Of a stretch of 64,000 nt of DNA, positions 7,765 to 14,168 are shown one piece after another. The translations under genes and the position numbers were made by a program. Within the stretch, counting starts at the first letter, position 1. Every line of letters begins with the position of its first letter. The notes below the pieces were generated by a model that did not search any database, was not told the origin of the DNA, and was given only the letters and a program-made list of their open reading frames with translations. This stretch comes from Escherichia phage HMD-P3, in sequence record PQ462667.1. The stretch is one strand, 5' to 3'.

Positions 7765-7800
7765 AGCCGGGTTGCTAGTCGACCTGGCTTTTATTTTATT
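7765..7800 (+). terminator. rho-independent terminator after nrdD
   Basis: Hairpin AGCCGGGT / ACCTGGCT (one G-U pair) followed by TTTTATTTTATT. Confidence 0.55.
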
Positions 7801-7856: not shown

Positions 7857-8237
7857 ATGGAATTAAAGCCCTATATAGTTGAATCTACATGTGGTAGTTT
7901 CCATCTGGGTGTGGATAATATTGCTGAGGCTGTCTTTGCTGCTACAGGTGATTACTCGCATATAGAGGGTGTTGCATACCCTACCATTATTGGCGATTGG
8001 GTGGGAACAAATCTAGATGTATCGCCTTATAACCCATATTGCTTGTTTGATGAAGACAGAGATGAAGTAAAATGTAATCTTGAATTTGTGTATAATAGAG
8101 TGTTAAAAGTGTACCAACGTAGCCCCAATGGGTACGAAGATATTACTTGGAGTATTAAACAGTATCTTAAAGATATATACTCTAGTTTTTCTGACGAAGA
8201 CCTAGAAACAGTTGCAGTGGAGTTTAATAATGACTAA
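7857..8237 (+). CDS. hypothetical early protein (126 aa)
   Basis: ORF directly behind promoter and GAGGAG RBS; no recognisable motif. Confidence 0.6.
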   Translation: MELKPYIVESTCGSFHLGVDNIAEAVFAATGDYSHIEGVAYPTIIGDWVGTNLDVSPYNPYCLFDEDRDEVKCNLEFVYNRVLKVYQRSPNGYEDITWSIKQYLKDIYSSFSDEDLETVAVEFNND

Positions 8238-8436
8238 GAATGTGAAACACCTTAAATATCGCTTAATTTACAACGGACGTATGGAAACAGAAGATCTGGC
8301 CCAGTTAGCTATTAATTCTAATGAGGTTACAGTACGCGCGCTGGCAATTGAAAAGTTGCGTGCCTCTTATGAAAATCGTGTTATGGAACTAGAGGAGAAA
8401 CTTTATGGCATTCTCGAAGCCGATGCTACCAGATAA
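8230..8436 (+). CDS. hypothetical small early protein
   Basis: ATG 8230 overlaps the upstream stop; start uncertain (longest ORF from 8212). Confidence 0.4.
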   Translation: MTKNVKHLKYRLIYNGRMETEDLAQLAINSNEVTVRALAIEKLRASYENRVMELEEKLYGILEADATR

Positions 8437-8626
8437 GGGTTTAAACGCCGCTTTGGAAAACGCATTAATGCAGCGCTGGGAAACTGGCTATAAGGATGGT
8501 GTTGAATCCTGCGCTACTATGCTAGAAGTTATTGCTAATACCTTAATGGAGAAAGGCAATAAAGAATTAGCTGAGCTATTAGACAGTATTGGGCAAAACT
8601 TCAGAGAACAGGTGAAAAATGCGTAG
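8405..8626 (+). CDS. hypothetical small early protein (73 aa)
   Basis: GAGGAG RBS 6 nt upstream of ATG 8405. Confidence 0.5.
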   Translation: MAFSKPMLPDKGLNAALENALMQRWETGYKDGVESCATMLEVIANTLMEKGNKELAELLDSIGQNFREQVKNA

Positions 8627-9434
8627 ATTAATTATTATTAGTGGTGCAGGTTTGAGTGTTGAAAGTGGTGTACGAGCTTTTCGTACTGATACTGCTAGCG
8701 GTAAAGCATTGTGGGATGATTATGATCTAGAAGAAGTATGTAATATTCATGCCTTTCGCGGTAATTTTTATCATAAAACCCATATGTTTTACAACAAGCG
8801 TCGTGAAGAACTAAAAACTGTTGAACCCAATCTTGCGCATTTGCGTATTGGTGAATGGTATAAACAATATCCAGGTCAAATAGTAAACTTGACTACCAAT
8901 GTTGATGACCTTATTGAGCGTGCTGGCGTTCCACATAGTGACATTCTGCACATTCACGGATATTTAAAAGAGGTTGTTGTAGCTGATAACTACAATAGTA
9001 GCAATAAACGGATTATTGATGTAGGATACAATTCTATTGATCCAGATGATTATAAATGGGTTAAACCTAATGTAATCTTCTTTGGAGAGCATGCTCCAGC
9101 ATATGCGGAGATGTACAATGTTTTTGATGGTATTACCAGTCAAGATATGATCATTGTGGTTGGTTGCTCCAACCAAGTAATTAACTTCTACTGGGAATTA
9201 TTTCCTGTTCTTAATTTGACTGCTGCTAAGCTAATGGTTGTTAACTACTATGATAGTGCCCTAGCGGTGGAACCGGGCTATCAAGGTATGACTCGTAGTG
9301 AGATGTATCAACTGGAAGAACGTGGTATCCCTTACTGGAGTAAAGGTGCGGTAGATGCTTTCAGTGATCCTGATTTTATTGCTCGTGTAGAAGCTCATTT
9401 AGGGGGTAGACCTTATGTATCAGGAACTAAGTAA
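8619..9434 (+). CDS. Sir2-family protein lacking a zinc-ribbon module (NAD-dependent deacetylase / NADase-like)
   Basis: Sirtuin NAD-binding motif GAGLSVESGVRAFR near the N-terminus and HIHG catalytic-His motif; no CxxC...CxxC pairs anywhere in the protein. Confidence 0.75.
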   Translation: MRRLIIISGAGLSVESGVRAFRTDTASGKALWDDYDLEEVCNIHAFRGNFYHKTHMFYNKRREELKTVEPNLAHLRIGEWYKQYPGQIVNLTTNVDDLIERAGVPHSDILHIHGYLKEVVVADNYNSSNKRIIDVGYNSIDPDDYKWVKPNVIFFGEHAPAYAEMYNVFDGITSQDMIIVVGCSNQVINFYWELFPVLNLTAAKLMVVNYYDSALAVEPGYQGMTRSEMYQLEERGIPYWSKGAVDAFSDPDFIARVEAHLGGRPYVSGTK

Positions 9435-9927
9435 TACTCCAATTATTTTTCTAGACATTGATGGGGTGCTCAATTCGAGCATCTCCCACCATCATGCACC
9501 TGATAATGAAAAGATTTTCTTTGGAAGTGACTGGGTTTTCAAACCGCTTCTCAAGGCTTTTCAGGACTTTATTCGTCCTTCTCCAATAATGATTGTTGGA
9601 GTATCATCTTGGTTCTCTGTCAGAAATGAGATGGAGAACGTTCAGATTATGACCGGATTAGGTCTTATCGATCGCTTTCTTGGTACAACGGATTTTACTG
9701 GTGGTGGATTATCTAGGGGTAATTCTGTTCTTCGTTTCGTCGAAAAGCATAAGCTCAAACATTGGTGTGTACTTGATGATGCGGGTGCTATGATGTATCA
9801 GTATCCAACGGTTATAGTCAACGGTAGAACTGGGATAAATCTTCAAGATTTAAAAGCTGTTAGCTATATGCTAGAATTTAGCCCAGATCTTGAAATGTGT
9901 AAATCCTTACAACAATTTAAGGTGTAA
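9415..9927 (+). CDS. HAD-superfamily phosphatase-like protein
   Basis: HAD motif I FLDIDGVLN at the N-terminus; 170 aa; overlaps the Sir2-like gene by 20 nt. Confidence 0.6.
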   Translation: MYQELSNTPIIFLDIDGVLNSSISHHHAPDNEKIFFGSDWVFKPLLKAFQDFIRPSPIMIVGVSSWFSVRNEMENVQIMTGLGLIDRFLGTTDFTGGGLSRGNSVLRFVEKHKLKHWCVLDDAGAMMYQYPTVIVNGRTGINLQDLKAVSYMLEFSPDLEMCKSLQQFKV

Positions 9928-9929
9928 AT

Positions 9930-10358
9930 ATGTTCAATAATGTATTCTCTAAAGAAGCTAACCCAATTTTGGTTAACTTTTGGCGTACTCTCCCGGCTAG
10001 CCTGTATAATGAGGCTATTAACTCCTTGAAAATATGGTGTGAGAATAACGAAATCTCTTTTGCTTTTAAAGATGATGTTGATGAGGCCCCTTGTATTGGT
10101 TTAAGTGTGCAGGTAGAGGAGGGTCTTGAAGAGATTGTCGGCTGGAAAGAGTTAGATGAAATGGGCTTAGTTTTTGCGTTAAACTATAAGCTGTTTATGC
10201 CTGCTAAGCATCGCCTCGTTGTTAACTATAAAACTAGTGAATCTCCTGGTTTTCAGGTTAATGAACGTTATGGTTGGTCTTACTCACCGGAAGAAGTAAA
10301 TGAGGGGATTCAGAAACTTCGACGTTTCGGGTATATAATCCCAGGTTTAACTGCTTAA
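9930..10358 (+). CDS. hypothetical protein, paralog A of a tandem pair
   Basis: Shares PCIG ... ELD-x-MGL-x-ALN ... PGL motifs with the next ORF. Confidence 0.6.
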   Translation: MFNNVFSKEANPILVNFWRTLPASLYNEAINSLKIWCENNEISFAFKDDVDEAPCIGLSVQVEEGLEEIVGWKELDEMGLVFALNYKLFMPAKHRLVVNYKTSESPGFQVNERYGWSYSPEEVNEGIQKLRRFGYIIPGLTA

Positions 10359-10367
10359 GGAGGCAGA

Positions 10368-10757
10368 ATGGAACAAGTATATTGGCGTCAGATTGACCCT
10401 AGTTTGGTGAAACGTGCGGAGAAGCTGCTACAACGTTGGTTGGGGGTAAGACAAGCCTCCTTTACTTTTCCGGAACAGCAAATAGATGACCCCTGCATTG
10501 GTGTTTTCCTGTCTGGATATGCCGGGGAATGGGAATTGGATTGGAATGAATTGTCTGCTATGGGCTTGATTGTTGCCCTAAACTTCTCTATATTCCATCC
10601 ACGTGGTTTGGCCATATGTCGTGTGCCGGATGATGGTTGTTCGCCCCATCTTTTACAGGTGGAAGATGATATTTGGGAGTACACTCCAGATATTCTCAAA
10701 GAAGCTAAAGAACAATTAAACCGTGTTGGGATCTATGTTCCGGGGTTAAGTGACTAA
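10368..10757 (+). CDS. hypothetical protein, paralog B of a tandem pair
   Basis: Same conserved blocks as 9930..10358 (DPCIGV, MGLIVALNF, PGLSD); AGGAG RBS upstream. Confidence 0.6.
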   Translation: MEQVYWRQIDPSLVKRAEKLLQRWLGVRQASFTFPEQQIDDPCIGVFLSGYAGEWELDWNELSAMGLIVALNFSIFHPRGLAICRVPDDGCSPHLLQVEDDIWEYTPDILKEAKEQLNRVGIYVPGLSD

Positions 10758-10851
10758 TGATTTTTATTAGCTGAACTCTGATTACCGAGTCATTTTGGCT
10801 CGGTTTTCTCTATGCTCAAGGACACTGATAGCACCTTTGGGAAAATTTTAC

Positions 10852-10880
10852 TTGCAGGATGCCCAAAATCTTGATATAAT
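10852..10880 (+). promoter_or_regulatory. strong sigma70-type promoter with extended -10 (TTGCAG, 17 bp, TGaTATAAT) with no ORF directly behind it
   Basis: -35 10852..10857, -10 10875..10880, followed by the T5-type downstream box ATTGAATTGAGAGA; the next convincing start codon is about 500 nt away. Confidence 0.6.
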
Positions 10881-11378
10881 ATTTATATTGAATTGAGAGA
10901 CATTAGTAAAAATTGATTTTGCTAATTTTTCTTGTTTACAATCCGCGATACGGAACAGTTAGGCTGCCCCATTAAGGGTTGTTTTAACTGTTACGTGTTA
11001 GTTTTTAAACAAATAATTAATAGAATACTTAGCGATCTACATCCCGTAGGAACCCTGGTAAGGCCTCGAAGCAACCTAGTGTGAGGTGGTTGTGAAGTGA
11101 GACGGGAAGAGTGAAAAACTCTGAGAAGTGATGACGTAAGGTATACTGCATCTAGTATGAGCTAGTATATGAAGCATTAGGTGAGCAAATCTGGCTTAGC
11201 GGCCATCCTCAAGGATTTGTGCGGTATAGTGAAGCGGCAGTGTAGCGTGAAAGGGGAAGTTGCCACCCCCCTTCAGTATTTGCGATTAATTGTTGAGAAA
11301 TTGACAGTAACAGTTGTTCTATTCTTTCTGAATAGTCCTAAAGAAAACTTATTTCATTTCCAACACAGGAGTATTGTT

Positions 11379-14168
11379 GTGTTCTCAATCCTACAAGGTC
11401 ATGCAGGATTTCATCGCGATTTAGCCACAGGCAATTGGCGGGAAGTTAAAGCAGAAAACTATCTTTTTGCTAAAAGATTTTCCTCAAAGCATCCTGAAGG
11501 TAAACCAGCTTCAATGCCCTTCAAGTTTGATGTAATTGATGAAGTTGATCCTCAAACCCTAGTAGAAATGCTCCCTCTTATGAGACGTTTAACGTCTGAC
11601 CCTCATATCGTTGCGGTACGAGGTCGATGTCTTGCACCTAAAAATAATGTGCGACGTAAGAAGGGCAACTTTAATGTATCTAACCCAAGTCATATAATTG
11701 CAATGGACGTGGATGGTATTGTAGATACAGGTGGTTGTAACAAGTTTGATCTTGTTGGCATGGCTCGACATATTATTAGAATGTTAAATAGTATTAGTGA
11801 GGATATGTTTCCTCTTGATGCAGGGTTTATCGCTCATGCATCGTCTTCGGCTGGGCTAAAACCAGGTATCCGAATGCACTTAATACTAGAATCTAATGTT
11901 AAAGTAACTCAGGGTCAAATCAAATTCTTATTTACATCTATCAACGAAAGTAGTAGACAAAAGTATGGCTTTGATATTGCCGACTTAGCTTATTACTCTT
12001 CCGTACAGCTCCATTATTTTGCAGATCCGTTATTTACTGATGGTATAGTAGATCCGTTTAAAGCGGAGGGTGCTTCACGTCTGGTATTTGTTAAGGGTTC
12101 TAAGGTAAACTTACCCAATAATCTGGTTGATTATGAAACAACTAGAGGTGAGTTTAAAGAGGAGTTTTACTCTTTACTCGACCAAATTAAGGGTAAAAAA
12201 GCTGCCTCTGATAAAGTAGAGGAAACTATCAGCGAACTAGAAGAAGCTGAGGATGGAGTGTACCTACGTATCATACCTAAACTCTATCACAGAGCTTTAG
12301 AGGATGGTGTTGATTTTGCGTGGCTAGAAAAAGAAATCCGTCCAGCCTTATCAGAATATATTGCAACTAAAGATAATAGTCGTAATATTCAAGATTACTT
12401 TAATAACGGTCGTAAACAGGCTCTGAAAGCGTTTGTTAATAATTCTAAACGCGATATACCTGATGTTTTAAAAGGTATTCCACTTAAAAAGCTAGAAACT
12501 AATTCTTTAGAAACTGATAACTTCTTGAAATTAAATACTGTACCACCAGAAGGTTATATGACTTTTGTAAAAGCAAGTCTAGGTACAGGTAAAACTACGG
12601 CGGTTGTGCGTTGGTTAGATTCAGGAGTTATTAAGGGTAATTTCTTAGCAATTACCAATACTCGAGCACTGGTATCTTCAAATGCTAAGAAATTTAGTGC
12701 AGGACAATATGATAAGTCTGTAGATATGCTTAATTTTAAGCGTGGCGCTATTGACCGTATGTCCACAACTATTCACTCTTTGCATAAGTTCAAGAGTTTT
12801 ATTGGTCAAATCGATGCAATCTTTATCGATGAATGTGATGCTGTAATGAATGACCTATTATTCGCCCCGGTTGTTAAACAACGTCGTGAATGTATTCAGG
12901 TTCTTCGGGATATTCTTGCAACTGCAAAAATCATTATATTATCTGATGGGGATATTAGTGCTGAAACAATTGAAGCATATGGTTCTTTGATTGAGTTTGA
13001 TAAACCGGTTGCATTTTATAATCACCACCGTAAGATGCTGTCAAAAGCTCATGCTTATGAATTCCCTGATGAATCCAGTATTTGGGTTGCACTTCAGACT
13101 TCTCTAGAGATGGGTGAGAAGTCTATCCTAGTATCTGACTGTGGTCCAGATGAACTGAATGAGAAGGGTATGGCATTGCGTCGTAATACGGGTGCGTTAG
13201 TTAAGGAAATCCACTCAAACTCTACGTCTGATGTAGATATTCGACGTATTCTGGATTACACAACTAATGAGCTAATTGACCAACAAATTGATTGCTTATT
13301 ATGTAGTCCATCCGTAACGAGTGGTGTTGACTTTAACTATTTTGATAACGTATTCGTTATCACTAGAACCTCAAACCAAGCGCCAAACATGCGTTTTCAA
13401 GCAATCAGGCGCGACCGTGGCGCTCAGAACATTTATTATTTTATTGATAAATCTACGAGTGGATTCTCCGCAGGTTCTGAACAATATAACATTGATGAAG
13501 GTTGGCTGGAGTTAGCACAGCAATTATACGCACGTCGTAGGGAGCTGGAATCTAGGAACTATACTAGTACTTTACGTTATTACTTGCTTGATCAGGGTGC
13601 AACTATTGATATTTTCAGTGAAAGCTGGGGAACTATCGAAGGTGCAGGAAAAGAGTATACGGAAGAGCGAATCAAAGCTATTTTGTATTCAACTCCTGAT
13701 TATTGTGCTCCACGCCATGCAGATGCGTATGAGGCTAAACTACTTCTTGTTCGCTATTATCATCTTGAGTCTATTAAAGATGTAACAGTTGAGCACGTTG
13801 AACAATATATCAAGGATAAACCGAATGATCGAGCTGCATTCTTCCATAAGATGCACGAGATGTTCTGGGAAGATATTAAGAAGTGTTCAAATGTCACTAT
13901 CAAACCATTCATAGAAGCTCTGAAAGGTAAGAAGAAAGATTTCTTCCTTAAAACAGGTCAGAGTGCTAACCCAAAATATGCAAGAATGTATCTTGGTATG
14001 ATGGGTATTGGTAAGGATATGAACACTGAAAATATTGTAGACTGGTACAGAACCTATTGTAAAATCGAGTGTATGCCAATCCCGTATAAGTTTATGACTG
14101 ATGAGGAGAAACATATGCATGATGAAGCAATGGCAGAGCTAGGTGCTAGAAATGACAGTGAAGAATAA
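11379..14168 (+). CDS. replication ATPase / helicase-like protein (putative origin-binding protein)
   Basis: Walker A SLGTGKTT and Walker B IFIDECD in the middle of a protein of about 930 aa. Start placed at GTG 11379 (AGGAG RBS 7 nt upstream); the longest ORF begins at 11181 but that extension has no RBS. Confidence 0.7.
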   Translation: MFSILQGHAGFHRDLATGNWREVKAENYLFAKRFSSKHPEGKPASMPFKFDVIDEVDPQTLVEMLPLMRRLTSDPHIVAVRGRCLAPKNNVRRKKGNFNVSNPSHIIAMDVDGIVDTGGCNKFDLVGMARHIIRMLNSISEDMFPLDAGFIAHASSSAGLKPGIRMHLILESNVKVTQGQIKFLFTSINESSRQKYGFDIADLAYYSSVQLHYFADPLFTDGIVDPFKAEGASRLVFVKGSKVNLPNNLVDYETTRGEFKEEFYSLLDQIKGKKAASDKVEETISELEEAEDGVYLRIIPKLYHRALEDGVDFAWLEKEIRPALSEYIATKDNSRNIQDYFNNGRKQALKAFVNNSKRDIPDVLKGIPLKKLETNSLETDNFLKLNTVPPEGYMTFVKASLGTGKTTAVVRWLDSGVIKGNFLAITNTRALVSSNAKKFSAGQYDKSVDMLNFKRGAIDRMSTTIHSLHKFKSFIGQIDAIFIDECDAVMNDLLFAPVVKQRRECIQVLRDILATAKIIILSDGDISAETIEAYGSLIEFDKPVAFYNHHRKMLSKAHAYEFPDESSIWVALQTSLEMGEKSILVSDCGPDELNEKGMALRRNTGALVKEIHSNSTSDVDIRRILDYTTNELIDQQIDCLLCSPSVTSGVDFNYFDNVFVITRTSNQAPNMRFQAIRRDRGAQNIYYFIDKSTSGFSAGSEQYNIDEGWLELAQQLYARRRELESRNYTSTLRYYLLDQGATIDIFSESWGTIEGAGKEYTEERIKAILYSTPDYCAPRHADAYEAKLLLVRYYHLESIKDVTVEHVEQYIKDKPNDRAAFFHKMHEMFWEDIKKCSNVTIKPFIEALKGKKKDFFLKTGQSANPKYARMYLGMMGIGKDMNTENIVDWYRTYCKIECMPIPYKFMTDEEKHMHDEAMAELGARNDSEE

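Follow-up and report, generated by a model that had tools for sequence, protein, structure and literature searches.

Two overlapping genes of Escherichia phage HMD-P3 (sequence record PQ462667.1) encode a zinc-less, apparently active sirtuin and a predicted phosphatase of the HAD type. The whole 64,000-nucleotide (nt) stretch of phage DNA that was analysed is referred to below as the window. The function that we rank first for the pair, tentatively, is RNA repair: the sirtuin would act on RNA phosphate in the manner of KptA, as predicted by Iyer, Burroughs, Anantharaman and Aravind in 2022 (Viruses 14:1977, section 3.7.3; PMC9503650), and, in an extension of their proposal, the HAD enzyme would dephosphorylate the ADP-ribose-phosphate by-product. 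Protein deacylation by the sirtuin is the main rival, while a small-molecule module and a glycohydrolase of nicotinamide adenine dinucleotide (NAD+) resembling ThsA are less likely. The Sir2-HAD pair and the RNA-repair prediction have already been published and the sirtuin gene is already annotated, and we do not present them as a new discovery. We add that the zinc ligands were lost secondarily, that the two genes occur independently of each other, that no RNA ligase is detectable in T5, that an operon joins homologues of the HAD gene to NARP1-like genes, and that the overlap between the two genes arose by deletion.

The elements of the pair are the following:
8619..9434, plus strand: zinc-less sirtuin of 271 amino acids with an ATG start (Pfam PF02146), orthologue of T5.102
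8961..9062, plus strand: degenerate zinc-ribbon segment, residues 115-148 of the sirtuin, with no Cys ligand (alignment with CobB and AlphaFold2 (AF2) model)
9415..9434, plus strand: overlap of 20 nt, from the HAD start to the Sir2 stop (alignment with T5, fp01, phiAPCEc03 and survey locus L014)
9415..9927, plus strand: cap-less HAD_SAK_2 phosphatase of 170 amino acids with an ATG start (PF18143), orthologue of T5.105

A preliminary description of this DNA, made from the letters alone, had delimited both open reading frames (ORFs) and their overlap exactly so.

The sirtuin matches the Pfam model SIR2 (PF02146) over model positions 1-178 of 180 with a score of 86.8 bits (cut-off 24; E = 2.3e-24), which is far beyond chance. 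The NAD-binding motif GAGLSVESGVRAFR covers residues 9-22 (nt 8643-8684) and HIHG residues 111-114 (nt 8949-8960), including the catalytic H113 (nt 8955-8957); both motifs had been recognised in the preliminary description, correctly. The full set comprises GAGLS (9-13), F21/R22, Y58-x-x-R61, TTNVDD (92-97; the Gln of the canonical TQNxD is a Thr here), FFGE (154-157), GCS (182-184) and N209. In an alignment of 42 homologues reaching down to about 50% identity, GAGxS, F21/R22, Y58-x-x-R61, N94/D96, H113-G114, FFGE, G182/S184 and N209 are all invariant, which argues that the sirtuin looks active, i.e., that it is a catalytically intact, NAD+-consuming transferase.

The AF2 model computed from the same alignment has a predicted local distance difference test (pLDDT) score of 90.9 and a predicted template modelling (pTM) score of 0.88. 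When it was searched with Foldseek against the Protein Data Bank (PDB), sirtuins led the matches: CobB (target-normalised template modelling score 0.83-0.85), Sir2-Af1, SIRT5, Sir2Tm and SIRT2, with E values down to 1.5e-17. Together with the full-length PF02146 match, this supports the Sir2 fold on which the preliminary description had staked its proposal. ThsA, DSR2 and other defence NADases were absent from the top 50 of these PDB matches. By sequence, the closest solved proteins are Escherichia coli CobB (1s5p, E = 1.8e-17), Archaeoglobus Sir2-Af1/Af2 and SIRT5. The best NCBIfam models are those of CobB deacylases, at scores far under their cut-offs (NF001753, 99.4 bits against 243; NF040867, 89.6 bits against 320); the CobB equivalog cut-off, the mark of orthology, is thus not reached. 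Sequence and predicted fold alike place the sirtuin closest to the class III deacylases (CobB, SIRT5) and not to the defence NADases. Y58 and R61 align with the FYNARR motif of CobB, the class III anion pocket; in SIRT5 and CobB, the Y-x-x-R of class III sirtuins binds the acyl carboxylate. Also invariant over the 42 homologues are F21, V95, F154/F155 and V187, which align with residues lining the acyl-lysine tunnel in solved sirtuins.

The cysteine pairs of the zinc ribbon were said to be missing, and so they are: the protein has two cysteines only (C41 and C183) and no CxxC. CxxC is absent from all 42 members of the clade, and the zinc-less state is therefore a property of the whole clade. 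In the AF2 model, the beta-strands of the zinc ribbon are kept (114-122, 131-134, 147-152), with other residues at the Cys positions as compared to CobB. Deeper relatives from jumbo- and mega-phage contigs, at 35-38% identity, retain CxxC...CxxC along with the canonical TQNxD and GTS; they represent the ancestral state and lie at 10001-10711 of L063 (a phage contig of 279 kilobases (kb)), at 9986-10708 of L064 (a 608-kb phage contig) and at 7926-8735 of L149 (a contig of a metagenome-assembled genome (MAG)). Their retention of these motifs argues that, as far as the sequences tell, zinc loss is a secondary event in a CobB-like phage lineage and not the mark of a defence family. TTNVDD and G(C/A/M)S are common to all zinc-less members, nearly all of which have also lost the Pro of VxP (VIN/VID). 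The co-occurrence of zinc loss with changes beside the active site suggests, from the alignments, a changed substrate. A pattern scan of the cellular genomes of 185,579 species gave six weak matches, the best two on short MAG contigs; the zinc-less clade is essentially phage-only.

The second protein had been described as a HAD phosphatase, and the profile agrees: it matches HAD_SAK_2 (PF18143) over model positions 1-138 of 139 at 72.1 bits (cut-off 27.5; E = 7.6e-20), again a match not to be expected by chance, and each of the four HAD motifs is in place, i.e., D14-x-D16 (motif I, nt 9454-9462), S64/S65 (II), R101 (III) and D121/D122 (IV). D14, D16, S64/S65, R101 and D121 are invariant in 28 homologues and D122 is conserved in at least 90% of them. 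The model (pLDDT 95.6) has the HAD Rossmannoid fold. Against the PDB, there was no match by sequence even at E <= 10 and none by Foldseek below E = 0.005, the T4 Pnkp phosphatase appearing weakly at E = 0.09. Motifs and model predict a phosphatase that is competent, divergent and cap-less; the role in RNA repair carried by the family name ("Swiss-army-knife RNA repair") is likewise a prediction. In RefSeq, the T5 orthologue (NC_005859, 57588-58094) is mislabelled "Sir2 (NAD-dependent deacetylase)", as it is in many GenBank records, where "Sir2 x2" results. The 92-residue profile phrog_18062 bears the Sir2 label although it corresponds to the C-terminal half of the HAD protein; it appears to be the source of this propagated mis-annotation.

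The 20-nt overlap, which the preliminary description took for a coupling of the two genes, did not bear that weight. In a sample of about 30 T5-like loci, only five share it with the window, while in T5 and most relatives Sir2 and HAD are separated by 124-460 base pairs (bp) that hold one to three tiny genes. Those of T5 are T5.103 and T5.104, paralogues of 60-61 amino acids (phrog_5116) with a W-C-Y-R motif (L019, 10797-11155), and the Sir2 stop overlaps the start of T5.103. The window misses about 325 bp as compared to T5, and the start codon of T5.103 now heads the HAD gene. Read from the alignment, the overlap is a lineage-specific deletion scar; it therefore provides no special evidence for Sir2-HAD coupling. 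Obligate translational coupling through the overlap was rejected, given the intervening genes in T5 and most relatives. The tiny-gene cassette varies from zero to three genes among T5-like phages, being deleted in the lineage of the window and carrying an extra insert in phiAPCEc03.

We surveyed the neighbourhoods of 59 viral loci with relatives of the window sirtuin (loci are cited by an L number). In T5-like phages, the order is Sir2, HAD and then two DUF7415 genes, while some Demerecviridae have Sir2 and the DUF7415 genes with no HAD. In Mydovirus-type phages of about 145 kb, a sirtuin 59-64% identical to that of the window sits in a tight, overlapping string: Metallophos, Rnl1-type RNA ligase, cREC, AAA_33 kinase, Sir2 and ATP-dependent DNA ligase. 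A divergent Prs-like/Nampt-like pair of the NARP1 type and a NADAR gene are found nearby. Many phages carry a solo Sir2 (L003, L039, L041-45, L052-53). The sirtuin has Nampt-family or NARP1-like genes as neighbours in the Mydovirus loci and in L060, L062 and L148. L062 and L148 are two distant zinc-less members; in them, the sirtuin is immediately preceded, in the same orientation, by a Nampt-family (NAPRTase) gene (L062, 8057-9493; L148, 6086-7528), an arrangement that would fit recycling of the nicotinamide released by the sirtuin. The HAD family is far more widely distributed, and none of 60 distant HAD loci had a Sir2 gene within 8 kb; with many Sir2 loci lacking HAD as well, neither gene needs the other. 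That Sir2 and HAD form an obligate two-gene module was rejected, each occurring alone in most lineages.

The closest HAD homologues outside the T5 group, 36-38% identical to the window protein (alignment A2), open an operon of HAD_SAK_2, Prs-like (Adps-type) and Nampt-like (Namat-type) genes in three related phages of about 150 kb:
L004, 6001-9217: Serratia phage ChuuTotoro
L145, 5001-8222: phage ABPH49
L147, 5001-8569: JGI contig

In all three, the stop of the HAD gene overlaps the start of the next gene. NARP1 work has found that Prs-like and Nampt-like pairs rebuild NAD+ from ADP-ribose, and Osterman et al. (2026 preprint, 10.64898/2026.01.28.702374) report that Adpp, a Macro-domain phosphatase of ADP-ribose-1''-phosphate (ADPR-1''P), when added to NARP1 (Adps and Namat), defeats RES-type defence (aRES). 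By analogy, the operon with HAD is a candidate non-Macro counterpart of NARP1-AP.

The distinct viral sirtuin clade and three types of neighbourhood were described by Iyer et al. (PMC9503650), who proposed that the sirtuin acts like KptA, removing 2'-phosphates from RNA. They found it independently associated with 2H, Nudix-cREC and PIN in jumbo phages, and noted the absence of a Macro domain. Their type 3 neighbourhood is typified by Escherichia phage SP15; SP15 is a Tequintavirus, and the published type 3 is therefore the same locus as that of the window. Types 2 and 3 were reproduced independently in our survey.

We infer what each enzyme acts on, and that both serve one pathway, as follows. 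The sirtuin would spend NAD+ in a reaction like that of KptA/Tpt1, with a phosphate monoester as acceptor, such as a 2'-phosphate or a terminal phosphate of damaged RNA. An oxygen of this phosphate would attack C1'' of NAD+ and nicotinamide would leave. His113 would then activate the 2''-OH, yielding dephosphorylated RNA and ADP-ribose 1''-2'' cyclic phosphate or ADP-ribose-1''-phosphate. The HAD enzyme would take a phosphate off the RNA end, or off ADPR-1''P to give ADP-ribose, which could be rebuilt into NAD+ where NARP1 is present.

Several observations speak in favour of RNA repair. The sirtuin is found, repeatedly and independently, beside enzymes of RNA ends and of cyclic or terminal phosphates (in Mydovirus-type and jumbo phages, with HAD in Tequintaviruses). 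Homologues of the HAD protein stand in a NARP1-like operon, a setting in which a phosphatase has a proven role. The anion pocket Y58-x-x-R61 is invariant, and the motifs that have altered along with the loss of zinc point to a different substrate.

Weighing against it, no sirtuin is known from biochemical work to act on RNA or to use a phosphate as acceptor, and heal-and-seal repair of the T4 type (kinase, phosphoesterase and Rnl1) leaves no 2'-phosphate and needs no 2'-phosphotransferase. In T5-type genomes (T5 1-68 kb and the window; tblastn, E <= 0.01), we detected no Rnl1- or Rnl2-type RNA ligase, polynucleotide kinase, cREC, NARP1 genes or NADAR; in T5, the pair would have to rely on enzymes of the host. 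The sirtuin and the HAD protein are both acidic (median isoelectric point (pI) 5.2; net charge of the sirtuin about -11), unlike typical RNA-end enzymes. The closest homologues of the sirtuin and the YxxR that it retains are those of protein desuccinylases. Sir2 and HAD are mutually independent in most phage lineages, and their adjacency, confined to one family (Demerecviridae), may reflect a single historical event.

A more specific version, by analogy with known enzymes, is in our judgement possible rather than probable: TTNVDD sirtuins would have switched from acyl-lysine to phosphate monoesters, becoming NAD+-dependent ADP-ribosyltransferases that dephosphorylate RNA or nucleic-acid ends and thus a sirtuin-fold analogue of KptA/Tpt1, and HAD_SAK_2 would be an ADPR-1''P phosphatase, i.e., a non-Macro analogue of Adpp, feeding the reconstitution of NAD+.

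The main rival, possible if not probable in our judgement, is that the sirtuin is an ordinary NAD+-dependent lysine deacylase with a pocket of the desuccinylase/demalonylase type. In the early phase of infection it would remodel the acylation of host or phage proteins, and might, for instance, switch on metabolic or replication enzymes that are under acyl control; the HAD gene would be an unrelated neighbour. Direct homology speaks for this explanation, as do the solo genes. The best relatives in sequence and fold are CobB, Sir2-Af1 and SIRT5, CobB deacylases supply the best NCBIfam models, the class III Y-x-x-R aligns with the invariant Y58/R61, and the residues aligned with the acyl-lysine tunnel are invariant too; the acidic pI is as in CobB. 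The sirtuin stands alone in many phages and the HAD family occurs nearly always without it, while an enzyme that uses up NAD+ stoichiometrically and releases nicotinamide would be in keeping with the links to Nampt, NARP1 and NARP2. Skliros et al. (2016; PMC5107563) proposed deacylation for zinc-less Vibrio-phage homologues. On the other hand, the score of 99 bits falls well short of the CobB equivalog cut-off of 243, the zinc module has changed in concert with three motifs close to the active site (TTNVDD for TQNxD, G(C/A/M)S for GTS, VIN/VID for VxP), the repeated, independent neighbourhoods with enzymes of RNA ends or ADP-ribose are left unexplained, and the host already has its own CobB. 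Should the enzyme prove to be a desuccinylase, phages would be rewriting host protein acylation.

Unlikely, in our view, is a small-molecule module of counter-defence or NAD economy, in which the sirtuin would convert or degrade an NAD-derived metabolite or immune signal and the HAD enzyme would dephosphorylate a phosphorylated ADP-ribose, such as the ADPR-1''P made by RES-type defences, as a non-Macro analogue of Adpp. The operon of HAD, Adps-like and Namat-like genes in ChuuTotoro, ABPH49 and the JGI contig points this way, a phosphatase added to NARP1 being a proven counter to aRES, as do the NADAR and NARP1-like genes near the sirtuin in Mydovirus-type loci and in L060; both genes are dispensable where defences are absent, and acidic proteins suit enzymes of soluble metabolites. 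Against this, ADP-ribose would not restore NAD+ in T5-type genomes, which are devoid of NARP1, and the link between HAD and NARP1 is confined to a single group of related phages. The HAD protein is of the cap-less form usually tied to macromolecular substrates, and no sirtuin is known to process signals of the cyclic ADP-ribose type. The suggestion in the preliminary description of an NAD or ADP-ribose processing module remains a live reading, though the analogy with defence NADases (ThsA, DSR, Sir2-HerA) on which it was built is not supported.

That analogy would make the sirtuin a ThsA/DSR-like NAD+ glycohydrolase which drains host NAD+ for takeover, and this we regard as very improbable: although the zinc ligands are absent with all NAD-binding residues present, and sirtuins can show low NADase activity, no PADLOC defence Sir2 model was matched at E <= 1, the canonical PF02146 is the sole Pfam match at E <= 1, the top 50 folds hold no defence NADase, there is one domain only and neither a sensor nor an effector partner, zinc loss appears secondary in a CobB-like lineage, relatives adjoin genes that rebuild NAD+, and T5 itself needs NAD+ for its NAD-dependent DNA ligase (T5.116/T5.117). 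A defence-family reading of either protein was rejected, PADLOC giving no match for the sirtuin or for HAD. Also rejected was a Macro-linked system of the SirTM type, there being no Macro domain nearby: none was found among five flanking proteins scanned against Pfam, the T5.101 homologue having been scanned against PHROGs only. NARP3 (NadR/PnuC) is not found in the T5 annotation of 1-68 kb.

If RNA repair were confirmed, RNA would for the first time be shown to be the substrate of a sirtuin, and phage RNA repair would be tied to the arms race over NAD+ (NARP1, NARP2, NARP3, aRES). Hundreds of phages, T5-like, Mydovirus-type and jumbo, carry conserved sirtuins. In a CRISPRi-ART screen (PMC11879866, supplementary file 16), T5.100-T5.106, Sir2 and HAD included, are scored "Not Fit", i.e., dispensable on the laboratory host; this, and the near-absence of the clade from cellular genomes, speak for an accessory role of the sirtuin and HAD genes. 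Both being dispensable in a tractable model phage, T5, the question is directly testable and clean deletions are feasible. As the preliminary description had it, a Sir2-like gene is annotated in T5 (T5.102, "Sir2 (NAD-dependent deacetylase)") and functionally uncharacterised, no functional study of it having been found in the searchable literature, nor an experimental or biochemical study of any phage sirtuin. The main text of the HIDEN-SEQ and transposon-mutagenesis phage papers mentions neither Sir2 or sirtuins nor T5-type phages. The "phage Sir2" of the NARP3 paper was set aside, the term meaning the anti-phage Sir2-HerA system there and not a phage-encoded sirtuin.

The region of the window is 97-98% identical to many Tequintavirus genomes, with 424 phage records matching. 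The phage is T5-like and the locus is an early accessory operon, the counterpart of T5.100-T5.107, which the T5 annotation places as one early transcription unit between an annotated promoter and terminator, with nrdD upstream and replication genes and the NAD-dependent DNA ligase downstream. In the window, the unit is bracketed by terminator-like hairpins and its order is three small genes, Sir2, HAD and two DUF7415 genes. Its remaining elements are:
7765..7789, plus strand: terminator-like hairpin after nrdD, the upstream boundary of the unit (10-bp stem and T-run; T5 has a terminator and promoter annotated at the equivalent position)
7857..8237, plus strand: first operon gene, 126 amino acids, homologue of T5.100 (phrog_11748, E = 5e-72), found upstream of Sir2 in many T5-like loci
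8230..8436, plus strand: small gene, homologue of T5.101, 68 amino acids from the ATG at 8230 (phrog_5236, E = 1e-45)
8405..8626, plus strand: small gene, 73 amino acids, overlapping the Sir2 start by 8 nt (phrog_5827, E = 2.7e-30)
9930..10358, plus strand: DUF7415 protein, 142 amino acids with two DUF7415 repeats, homologue of T5.106 (Pfam PF24187, E = 6.2e-37)
10368..10757, plus strand: second DUF7415 protein, 129 amino acids, homologue of T5.107 (Pfam PF24187, E = 2e-32)
10784..10804, plus strand: terminator-like hairpin, the downstream boundary of the operon (T5 and Lindwurm have terminators annotated at the same place)

The start at 8230 was taken from the annotation of phage Lindwurm, the mechanically called ORF beginning at 8212. 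The phrog_5827 gene occurs in the window and many relatives and has no match in T5 itself (L019). AGGTGA (8610-8615) precedes the Sir2 ATG and the Shine-Dalgarno-like AGGGGG (9401-9406) the HAD ATG, and Lindwurm has ribosome-binding sites annotated at both positions. In a simple sigma-70 scan, promoter-like sites were not above those in shuffled sequence, and the annotated promoter of T5 was used instead. The window contains no tRNA gene and no Rfam family. DUF7415 genes trail the sirtuin even in Demerecviridae without HAD (L055, L058, L059), and one is also found near HAD in phages of about 221 kb (L086, L089); the DUF7415 proteins may be more faithful partners of the Sir2 locus than HAD. Between the operon terminator and the gene for the origin-binding protein, about 620 bp (10758-11379) carry no annotated gene, no Rfam family and no repeats; at this position, T5 has an annotated promoter followed by a leader of about 470 nt. 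The mechanical ORF 11181-14168 begins upstream of the annotated start of the origin-binding protein.

Among known systems, the nearest is the type 3 neighbourhood of Iyer et al., which likewise has a sirtuin of the phage clade beside a SAK-type HAD in a T5-like phage; its published function is a prediction, and the deletion variant with overlapping genes is all that sets the window apart. The sirtuins of KVP40-type Vibrio phages (Sir2/CobB), described by Skliros et al. (PMC5107563) as lacking the zinc site, are, by that description, similarly phage-encoded, CobB-like and zinc-less; the gene was linked there to phage NAD+ synthesis genes, T5 was listed as a carrier, and the work on the Vibrio-phage proteins was confined to in silico models. 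With CobB and SIRT5, the window sirtuin shares the fold, the NAD-binding and catalytic motifs, the Y-x-x-R pocket and a similar size and pI; it differs in the absent zinc cysteines, in TTNVDD for TQNxD, GCS for GTS and VIN for VxP, in an identity of 22-26% and in belonging to a phage-exclusive clade.

ThsA, DSR1/DSR2, SIR2-HerA and short pAgo-Sir2 have in common with it the Sir2 Rossmann fold, NAD+ as substrate and the absence of a zinc ribbon, but it belongs to another family, is encoded by the phage and not by the host, and has no sensor domain or partner. KptA/Tpt1 would share the proposed logic of the reaction and also occurs in RNA-ligase neighbourhoods, whereas the fold of KptA, that of the ADP-ribosyltransferase (ART) superfamily, is unrelated, the sirtuin having neither sequence nor structural similarity to it. 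A phosphatase gene in an Adps-Namat operon is common to NARP1-AP and ChuuTotoro-type phages, HAD_SAK_2 taking in the latter the position held in the former by Adpp, a Macro domain and not a HAD; T5-type genomes are without NARP1. Finally, the HAD protein resembles the phosphatase domain of T4 Pnkp, MDP-1 and SCP1 in its DxDxT-type core, its absent or minimal cap and its four motifs.

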